Shown here in pieces: positions 4,941 through 7,009 of a DNA stretch of 64,000 nucleotides. A program made the position numbers and the translations under genes. The DNA is taken from sequence record OZ035760.1, one strand, 5' to 3'. The stretch's first letter is position 1, and every line of letters begins with the position of its first letter. A model generated the notes under the pieces. The model saw only the letters and a program-made list of their open reading frames with translations. It ran no database searches and was not told the DNA's origin. The stretch comes from Tequatrovirus NIC06P2.

Positions 4941-5815
4941 TCAACACCGATGCGGCGCCACATTTCAACTACTTGAGTTCGGTCATCAATAGCTAATTTC
5001 ACGTCAAAATGCGGTGCGATGTGTTTCCAGAAAATTTCTTCTTTAACTACATCATCTTTACGAGTATCGCCTTGTTCGCGTTGACATTGCATAACTAATG
5101 GAACACCAGCAATGTCCTCAACCCATTTACGGGTCATACGATAATATTTCGTTGGGTCTTCTTCAGTTCCACTTTCACGGCCTGAAACGACTACGATGTA
5201 ATATCCTTGCTTATCGTACATCTTAGCTAGTTCAACAATCATAGGATTGATAACATCGGTATCACATTTTTCAAGGTCATAAGGACCGCGACCATTCATT
5301 TTTGCTAATGTGCCATCAACATCAAAAATAACTGCTTTTGGTTTACCAGGAGTCCCTTTATATACCGGAAGACCGAGATACTCTCGCATGTTTTTATACA
5401 TTGAGCGTAAAACATCAATTGGTACTGCTTTAGTTCCACGCTTTGAGTTACGTTTAACCAATTCAGTCCAAGGAACATCAAACACTTTATATTCAACTTT
5501 CCAGCCGTATTCTTTGGCAAAAGTTTCCCATGCTAGGCGACGTTCAGGATTCAGGTTAGTGTCTGAAATAATTACTCCCTTGACAGAATCTCCGCCGTAC
5601 AGAATACTTTTAGCTGTATCAAACTGCATACCAGATACGATGCCTTCTTTCTTTTTGGTATACTTATACTCGTCACGTTCTTCATGACCCATAATGGATT
5701 GACGATAATCATCACGATTAATATTATAAAACCCAGGATTTTTAGCAATAAATTCACGAGCCCAAGTGCTCTTACCTGAACCAGGACATCCAACAGTCAA
5801 AATAATCTTTTTCAT
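4910..5815 (-). CDS. pseT: polynucleotide 5'-kinase/3'-phosphatase (301 aa)
   Basis: N-terminal P-loop GCPGSGKST kinase domain plus C-terminal HAD-type phosphatase motif DVDGTL; matches T4 PseT length. Confidence 0.9.
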
Positions 5816-6135
5816 CATTTAATTCCTAAGAAAACTTCAAGAATACGAATATTATGCTCGCGCCGCCCTTTATATAATTCAGCTGTTGATTGATTCACCG
5901 ATTTGCTCTGAACATTAGATGAAATAAATTTTATCATGTGATTTTTAAGCTGATACATATCAAACCCACGAGCTTTTGCTTCTTTTCGTAGGGCTTTACC
6001 AGCATCATCTAAAGCTTTCGCAGGGTCTTCATCATTTAATACTATTCCACGGTCTAAATCCATGTATACTGCACCATTGCATGCATCAATGTAACGGTCT
6101 GAACATTCAATATAACGTTCTAACAGAGTTTTCAT
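5815..6135 (-). CDS. hypothetical protein (pseT.1 position, 106 aa)
   Basis: Complete ORF coupled to pseT start. Confidence 0.5.
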
Positions 6136-6369
6136 TTATTTTTTCTCAACCAATGATTGAATATAATCATGCAGGTCTTTAGATGCTTTACCCCACTTAT
6201 TTTGATATTCATTTTTGAGATTAGCGCGTGATTGAGCTAATAAAACATCATTAGTTGGAGGTAAAGATTCTAATCGCTGAATCTGGCGTCCATAAATCAT
6301 TGCAGCCATCTCGGATTCATAAATCAATCCTTTAAGATGTTCAAATTGATGCCATGAAATCATTTGCAT
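6136..6369 (-). CDS. hypothetical protein (77 aa)
   Basis: Complete ORF. Confidence 0.5.
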   Translation of the reverse strand: MQMISWHQFEHLKGLIYESEMAAMIYGRQIQRLESLPPTNDVLLAQSRANLKNEYQNKWGKASKDLHDYIQSLVEKK

Positions 6370-6659
6370 TTATCCTCTTTTAACTCTTGACGATAATAAC
6401 ATATCATAGTTTTCTGGTCATGTACATATCGTTTTACATCATTAAGCCAAATACGAAATTCCTGGGAATCTTCAAATGGCATACCGACCCAAGCTTTACC
6501 ATCGATAACTTTAACTTGCCAAGATAGTTTAGCTTCATCATATGACTTTATTTGTACAGGCCAATTAGGATGAACTGTTTCTTTCTTTACTTCTAGAGGC
6601 TTTGTCGAACAACCAACTAGAAGACCAATAGATAATATTACTGCTGATAGTTTAATCAT
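6360..6659 (-). CDS. putative lipoprotein (99 aa; signal peptide with LVGC lipobox)
   Basis: N-terminus MIKLSAVILSIGLLVGCSTKP has hydrophobic core and lipobox Cys. Confidence 0.55.
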   Translation of the reverse strand: MIKLSAVILSIGLLVGCSTKPLEVKKETVHPNWPVQIKSYDEAKLSWQVKVIDGKAWVGMPFEDSQEFRIWLNDVKRYVHDQKTMICYYRQELKEDKCK

Positions 6660-7009
6660 TTAGAAAGGTCCTGGATGTCTTCTGCGAACTTGTTGAAGGA
6701 GTTGTTGATTTGTTTTTCAACCAATCCTGGCTTATGAGCCACCACATCCGCCTTCTTTGCGTCTTTGCGCAGTTTTTCATTTTCACGCTCAATAGCAGCA
6801 ATTGCCTCACGATTTTTATTATTCATCGCATCAATATAATTATACTGAATTCGCAAATTATTTAATGCTAAGGCGTTTTCATTGGCCGTTTTTGTAATTT
6901 CAGTAACTGATGTTTCTAATCTTTCTACCTTATTTTTTAAAATAATAGATGTTCCGCCAAATGCTATTACAAGTAATAGCAATCCAGCTGTAAAATTACT
7001 TACATGCAT
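6656..7009 (-). CDS. hypothetical membrane-anchored coiled-coil protein (117 aa)
   Basis: N-terminal hydrophobic helix (AGLLLLVIAFGG) followed by charged helical region. Confidence 0.5.
   Translation of the reverse strand: MHVSNFTAGLLLLVIAFGGTSIILKNKVERLETSVTEITKTANENALALNNLRIQYNYIDAMNNKNREAIAAIERENEKLRKDAKKADVVAHKPGLVEKQINNSFNKFAEDIQDLSK

Follow-up and report, generated by a model that had tools for sequence, protein, structure and literature searches.

We analysed a 64,000-nucleotide stretch of Tequatrovirus NIC06P2 (sequence record OZ035760.1; the whole stretch is hereafter the window), in which the interval between alc and the polynucleotide kinase gene pseT is the alc-to-pseT part of a T4-like (Tequatrovirus) early operon. 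Four densely packed open reading frames (ORFs), all on the minus strand, separate the two genes and correspond to T4 pseT.3, pseT.2 and pseT.1, followed by a fourth ORF, here called X (Table 1). The T4 reference holds only pseT.1, pseT.2 and pseT.3 between pseT and alc; an initial annotation, made from the letters of the window alone, was therefore correct in placing four ORFs here, one more than in T4, and X is the extra one. The same annotation had proposed the lipoprotein and the membrane-anchored protein encoded in this interval as candidates for superinfection exclusion or defence inhibition. Our analysis identifies them instead, with near certainty, as the known two-component spanin of T4, composed of PseT.3 (the inner-membrane spanin, or i-spanin) and PseT.2 (the outer-membrane spanin, or o-spanin). 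Spanins disrupt the outer membrane of the host as infection ends.

Neighbouring genes in the interval abut or overlap by 1-10 nucleotides (nt), with overlaps of the ATGA type, which is the pattern expected of a translationally coupled operon. Using a 1.7-kb nucleotide query (5600-7300), we found 665 matching phage records, the best being that of Escherichia phage vB_Eco_Solly (99.0% identical), and many of these records label the locus 'spanin Rz', 'outer membrane lipoprotein Rz1' or 'Rz-like spanin'. All four ORFs were assigned to PHROG families (E-values of 1e-38 to 1e-58). Because of these assignments, of a proportion of nonsynonymous differences (pN) far below that of synonymous differences (pS) in comparisons with other genera, and of the detection of the T4 proteins by proteomics, the four ORFs are real genes and not chance ORFs.

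PseT.3 is identical to its T4 counterpart at 116 of 117 residues (E 2e-85), the sole substitution being H26N at the membrane boundary, where Bas37 also has Asn. Its best PHROG is phrog_739, 'Rz-like spanin' (E 9.7e-38), with weak matches to the further 'Rz-like spanin' families phrog_214 (E 3.5e-06) and phrog_89 (E 0.0016). PseT.2 matches T4 PseT.2 at 98 of 99 residues, the exception falling where the T4 record has an ambiguous base, and all 99 residues (99/99) agree with the o-spanin annotated in phage KarlGJung/Bas37; the family of PseT.2, phrog_812, carries the same 'Rz-like spanin' label (E 3.5e-43). Taken together, the pair in the window is 97-100% identical to the i- and o-spanin annotated in Bas37. 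Cloned T4 pseT.3 and pseT.2 restore lysis to lambda Rz-am Rz1-am (Kongari et al. 2018, PMC6139136), and we assign PseT.3 and PseT.2 as a spanin because they share 99% identity with this complementing pair.

The features of the two proteins agree exactly with the published description of the T4 spanin (PMC6139136) in the transmembrane helix, the heptads, the lipobox, the Ser at +2, Cys87 and Cys98, and the cysteine-free i-spanin. In PseT.3, an N-terminal transmembrane helix occupies residues 6-24 (FTAGLLLLVIAFGGTSIIL; Kyte-Doolittle mean 2.24), the other 92 residues are hydrophilic, and 34% of the periplasmic part consists of K, R, D or E. Across residues 27-90, the hydrophobic fraction at heptad positions a and d is 0.78, a value equalled in 3 of 2,000 shuffles. 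The membrane helix and charged helical region that the initial annotation had described are thus borne out, and PseT.3 is an N-in/C-out protein with a single transmembrane segment and a coiled-coil helix in the periplasm. PseT.2 begins with a signal peptidase II signal (MIKLSAVILSIGLLVGC) whose lipobox, LVGC, places the lipidated residue at Cys17, so that the lipoprotein signal read there initially is also upheld. Cys17 is followed by Ser at +2 and Thr at +3; with Ser and not Asp at +2, PseT.2 is without an inner-membrane retention signal and is predicted to be sorted to the outer membrane. Its cysteines lie at positions 17, 87 and 98. For T4, the i-spanin is described as a cysteine-free protein of 117 amino acids (aa) with coiled-coil propensity in helix alpha-1 alone and the o-spanin as a structured protein with Cys87 and Cys98, where C87S, C98S or the double mutation abolishes lysis (PMC6139136). 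The i-spanin gene lies directly upstream of the o-spanin gene on the same strand, with a 4-nt ATGA overlap, and every related locus compared has the two genes in this order. Pfam and NCBIfam scans of the two proteins returned sub-threshold matches only (coiled-coil families and an Lpp-type signal), which were not used as functional evidence.

Both spanin genes are conserved beyond Tequatrovirus, with pN well below pS against the other genera. Phage SF (Mosigvirus), KIT01 (Dhakavirus) and fHe-Yen9-01 (Tegunavirus) all have alc, the i-spanin gene and the o-spanin gene in the same order, and the o-spanin lipobox and both C-terminal cysteines are present in all four genera. Shared blocks include WQVKVIDGxxWVGMPFExSQExRIWLNDVxRYVxDQKxMxCYY in the o-spanin and VVAxKPxLVEKQINxSF at the C terminus of the i-spanin.

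The initial annotation had regarded these as early genes, which fits both the sequence upstream and the expression data for T4. A consensus scan located an early-type promoter in the gap between rnlA and alc, identical in sequence in T4, and this promoter is the likely start of an alc-pseT.3-pseT.2-pseT.1-X-pseT transcript. No late-promoter motif (TATAAATA) occurs between positions 2092 and 8104, and counts of this motif across the window are at chance level. In the time-resolved transcriptome and proteome of T4, pseT.1, pseT.2 and pseT.3 are all detected at both the RNA and the protein level, pseT.1 and pseT.2 as early RNA and early protein and pseT.3 as early RNA and middle protein (PMC9697503, supplement).

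Transposon maps obtained by HIDEN-SEQ report the consequences of disrupting these genes. In T4, pseT.3 is scored as essential, with insertions in 5 of 28 TA sites, and pseT.2 shows a strong fitness defect (6/30), while pseT.1 (17/17) and pseT (68/70) are non-essential (bioRxiv 10.1101/2025.11.20.689424, supplement). Strong fitness defects were likewise recorded in Bas37 for the i-spanin gene (6 of 29 sites) and the o-spanin gene (7 of 31 sites) (bioRxiv 10.1101/2025.11.20.689424).

In the published spanin model, complexes joining the inner and outer membranes build up within the peptidoglycan mesh and are released only after endolysin action (PMC6139136). On this model, the N-terminal helix would anchor PseT.3 in the inner membrane, with the coiled coil reaching into the periplasm. 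The spanin complex would cross the periplasm by threading through the mesh of peptidoglycan and be kept inert by it. Early synthesis of the spanins would be harmless because the cell wall restrains the complex. Once holin T has triggered and the wall has been removed by endolysin E, the spanin complexes would be free to move and change shape; the freed complexes may then fuse the inner and outer membranes, whereby the last barrier to phage release would be gone. Two intermolecular disulfides between PseT.2 Cys87 and Cys98 would be needed for this fusion step.

Table 1. Genes and sequence features of the alc-to-pseT interval and its surroundings, in transcription order (positions in the window), followed by the direct repeats flanking X.
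Feature	Position	Strand	Length	Remarks
rnlA	7568-8728	minus		first of the genes listed here in transcription order
sigma-70 / T4 early-type promoter (likely start of the transcript)	7535-7563	minus		GTTTACA, 17 nt, TG-TATAGT; in the rnlA-alc gap; found by consensus scan
alc	7000-7506	minus		
pseT.3, i-spanin	6656-7009	minus	117 aa	
pseT.2, o-spanin	6360-6659	minus	99 aa (precursor)	
pseT.1	6136-6363 or 6136-6369	minus	75 aa or 77 aa	shorter form from the T4-equivalent start
ORF X	5815-6135	minus	106 aa	RB32ORF217c / RB69ORF231c in other records
pseT	4910-5818	minus		
TTTTCAT, left	5809-5815			7-bp direct repeat
TTTTCAT, right	6129-6135			7-bp direct repeat

The gene that sets this interval apart from that of T4 is X. 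Relative to T4, the window has 320 extra bases (5816-6135) bounded by copies of TTTTCAT, each of which spans a start codon and the bases following it on the coding strand. Removal of these bases recreates the T4 pseT/pseT.1 junction, with 75 of 80 positions identical across it. In a spread sample of matches to the T4 junction, only about 4 of the 45 full-length rows lacked an interruption, as T4 does; T6, RB3, RB68 and most others carry the X-containing insert. Homologues of X lie directly upstream of pseT in Tequatrovirus, Dhakavirus and Tegunavirus and one ORF away from it in Mosigvirus, and within the family divergence follows phylogeny, with pN far below pS. Most simply read, X was present in the ancestor of Tevenvirinae, and a microhomology deletion removed it from T4. 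At this locus the T4 reference represents a minority, deleted state, which is relevant wherever T4 serves as an annotation template. At the junction of X and pseT in the window (5813-5818), two ATG codons of pseT stand in tandem (MMKK), either of which may serve as the start and would overlap the TGA stop of X; T4 pseT begins MKK.

X is a full-length member of phrog_2364 (E 5.7e-58), a family that is restricted to Tevenvirinae and present in 703 phage records. AlphaFold2 predicted a four-helix bundle for it (predicted local distance difference test, pLDDT, 88.4; predicted template modelling score, pTM, 0.80) in which residues 23-35 form a disordered loop; many homologues have deletions or other changes in this segment. 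X is a soluble protein and not an envelope protein. The envelope targeting initially proposed for PseT.2 and PseT.3 holds; X, the gene next to pseT, had not been singled out. A search of 1.84 billion representatives with a profile hidden Markov model of X retrieved five members, all from its own family; two borderline matches (E about 1e-3), to secreted repeat proteins of 450 aa, were regarded as compositional. Structure searches of BFVD with Foldseek returned only fHe-Yen9-01 gp241 and RB69ORF231c. In the Pfam and NCBIfam scans, a match of X to GapR-like DNA-binding proteins was sub-threshold (E 0.017) and was not used as functional evidence.

Compared with its Bas37 orthologue, bas37_0056, X is 64% identical, and the differences are unevenly placed. 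The 3' half of the gene (5828-6007, about 180 bp) forms a sharp-edged mosaic patch with 47-62% nucleotide identity to Bas37, set between flanks that are 92-100% identical from alc to pseT. In the family alignment, N- and C-terminal variants are combined differently among members, which suggests that the C-terminal cassette of X has been exchanged by recombination between genera. A separate, smaller dip lies inside pseT, where a 60-bp bin (5168-5227) has an identity of 0.78 to Bas37, compared with 0.93-1.00 around it.

PseT.1 is identical to T4 PseT.1 over its whole length (75/75) and belongs to phrog_2347. The mechanical ORF call extends it by two residues (MQ) to an in-frame ATG at 6369, because positions 6364-6369 read ATG-CAA-ATG here and ATG-TAA-ATG in T4. 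The T4-equivalent start at 6363 forms an ATGA overlap with the pseT.2 stop codon, and it is this shorter start that related records annotate. Hydropathy revealed no hydrophobic segment in the protein, and AlphaFold2 modelled a two-helix hairpin (helices 4-33 and 40-74, pLDDT 94.6). PseT.1 is predicted to be a small soluble helical protein; it is dispensable in the laboratory, with insertions in 17 of 17 TA sites in T4 and 16 of 17 in Bas37. Its homologues form only 11 clusters, 10 of which are on phage contigs or unnamed, the exception being a 353-bp contig labelled Xanthomonas pisi. These homologues carry the precomputed Pfam label PF26888. What fills the slot that PseT.1 occupies, between the o-spanin gene and X, differs from genus to genus: a 160-aa ORF replaces PseT.1 in KIT01 (locus L005, 2022-2504), and ORFs of 104 and 57 aa stand there in fHe-Yen9-01 (locus L006, 2017-2504), in both cases preceded by a gap of 170-210 bp that is absent in Tequatrovirus.

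The region beyond the 3' end of pseT (4520-4940 and 4713-4940) holds small ORFs of 66 aa and 75 aa whose positions match those of T4 cd.4 and cd.5. Public product names at the locus are inconsistent or doubtful, with pseT listed as 'Zeta toxin' or 'AAA family ATPase' and the small ORFs labelled 'DNA helicase' or 'putative DNA metabolism protein' in some records.

We considered whether the lipoprotein, the anchored protein or both might instead act in superinfection exclusion or host-defence inhibition, in the manner of T5 Llp or the Cor lipoproteins, which block a receptor, or of T4 Imm and Sp, which block the entry of DNA. PseT.2 and PseT.3 are indeed envelope proteins made early, at the time when exclusion functions act, and exclusion by lipoproteins is known from other phages, in the form of T5 Llp and phi80/N15 Cor. 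Even so, we judge this role very improbable. PseT.2 and PseT.3 share 99% identity with T4 proteins that have been shown to act in lysis, and none of the four proteins of the interval has a Pfam or NCBIfam match to an exclusion family. Moreover, disruption of either gene is strongly deleterious during single-phage propagation on restriction-less E. coli K-12, which is unexpected for exclusion or anti-defence genes. The transposon maps allow a direct comparison within one phage: in Bas37, insertions accumulate freely in imm (mean count 378) and sp (998), whereas the two spanin genes are strongly counter-selected (0.0 and 2.2) (bioRxiv 10.1101/2025.11.20.689424). This insertion pattern fits lysis genes and differs from that of genes for exclusion or anti-defence, which a phage can do without on a permissive laboratory host; the function first put forward for the two proteins is not supported. 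The spanin pair may nonetheless have a secondary exclusion or anti-defence role. The spanin assignment comes with some caveats. PseT.3 carries the H26N substitution, albeit with the same Asn in Bas37; the lysis role of this exact phage's pair is a presumed one, carried over from T4 and Bas37; and membrane fusion was shown directly for lambda Rz/Rz1 only, from which, given the complementation, we infer it for the T4-type pair. In addition, the T4 spanin genes lie away from the holin and endolysin genes and are early, an arrangement that is unusual for lysis genes and already documented. Nothing in the data of this analysis contradicts the spanin assignment. This analysis itself established how closely the pair matches the T4 proteins, along with its sequence features, the structure of the operon and its conservation; spanin function and the fitness cost of disruption rest on the literature for T4 and Bas37 proteins that are 97-100% identical.

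For X, the reading as a free-standing homing endonuclease, under which bas37_0056 is annotated, would explain its presence in some phages and absence from others. The label 'putative homing endonuclease' stands on X orthologues in three BASEL phage records, and the indel relative to T4 is ORF-precise. Yet no HNH, GIY-YIG, LAGLIDADG, PD-(D/E)XK or other nuclease family was found in X with Pfam, NCBIfam or PHROG profiles, and the confident model is a plain 106-residue four-helix bundle. Its constant position in four genera, with divergence tracking phylogeny, is unlike that of a recent mobile invader, and the T4 state is accounted for by deletion between the 7-bp repeats. We therefore give the endonuclease reading hardly any credence. 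X could instead be a host-specific accessory or counter-defence factor, possibly tied to tRNA repair by the adjacent, translationally coupled pseT, a proposal we regard as unlikely. It would be consistent with a location upstream of pseT in four Tevenvirinae genera, abutting or overlapping the start codon in three, with a variable other side; with purifying selection; with presence in some strains and absence from others; and with the mosaic 3' half (47-62% identity, against at least 92% in the flanks), a pattern often seen in arms-race genes. X is also dispensable on K-12, the Bas37 orthologue being non-essential with 27 of 30 sites hit (bioRxiv 10.1101/2025.11.20.689424). In the HIDEN-SEQ table comparing K-12 with the uropathogenic host CFE299, pseT insertions were depleted in CFE299 (log2 fold change, log2FC, -1.90) while insertions in the X orthologue were neutral (-0.02), which argues against X as a required partner of PseT (bioRxiv 10.1101/2025.11.20.689424). 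We consider it quite unlikely that X acts in host range or counter-defence on a target that laboratory E. coli lacks; the allelic C-terminal half might set target specificity. In the same table, bas37_0053, two genes downstream of pseT in Bas37, has a log2FC of -2.26 (p 0.01, adjusted 0.31), which hints at a host-specific role near pseT other than that of X.

With the spanin assignment of PseT.3 and PseT.2, the result for this interval is mainly corrective: PseT.3 belongs in annotations as an i-spanin and PseT.2 as an o-spanin, both with a function in lysis, and neither should be listed as an exclusion or anti-defence candidate. Many database records at this locus still give the spanin genes as 'hypothetical protein'. 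Both spanins, and X as a catalogued hypothetical gene, were already known, and the locus offers nothing new in this respect.

Among known systems, the closest to X is the rest of the phrog_2364 family (RB69ORF231c, RB32ORF217c and fHe-Yen9-01 gp241), which shares its predicted fold (Foldseek TM 0.82-0.91) and its position upstream of pseT and has a C-terminal half in divergent allelic forms. T4 Imm/Sp (spackle), T5 Llp and Cor resemble PseT.2 and PseT.3 in being small early envelope proteins, and Llp and Cor are also lipoproteins; however, we found no sequence relationship between any of them and the pair. Imm and Sp are dispensable for propagation, unlike the spanin genes, and the demonstrated activity of the T4 orthologues of the pair is lysis.

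Lambda Rz/Rz1 belongs to the same class and has the same topology, with a type II inner-membrane coiled-coil protein and an outer-membrane lipoprotein, but is without meaningful sequence homology to PseT.3/PseT.2, the weak matches of PseT.3 to phrog_214 and phrog_89 being the sole trace. In contrast to the lambda arrangement, the T4-type spanin genes are adjacent and not embedded, are early and not late, and lie apart from the holin and endolysin genes. The T4-type o-spanin exceeds its lambda counterpart in size and has a predicted beta-alpha-beta structure in place of a proline-rich, disordered one, and cysteines are confined to the o-spanin, where both are required. The T4 spanins, with their separated architecture, were reportedly first identified by Summer et al. 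in 2007. A lysis-timing protein reported in PMC11657625 belongs to an unrelated phage. T4 PseT.3/PseT.2 is matched by the pair in the window in protein lengths, transmembrane helix, coiled coil, LVGC lipobox and Cys87/Cys98, as well as in its place between alc and pseT.1 and in the early promoter upstream of alc, the sole difference being the change from His26 to Asn in PseT.3.

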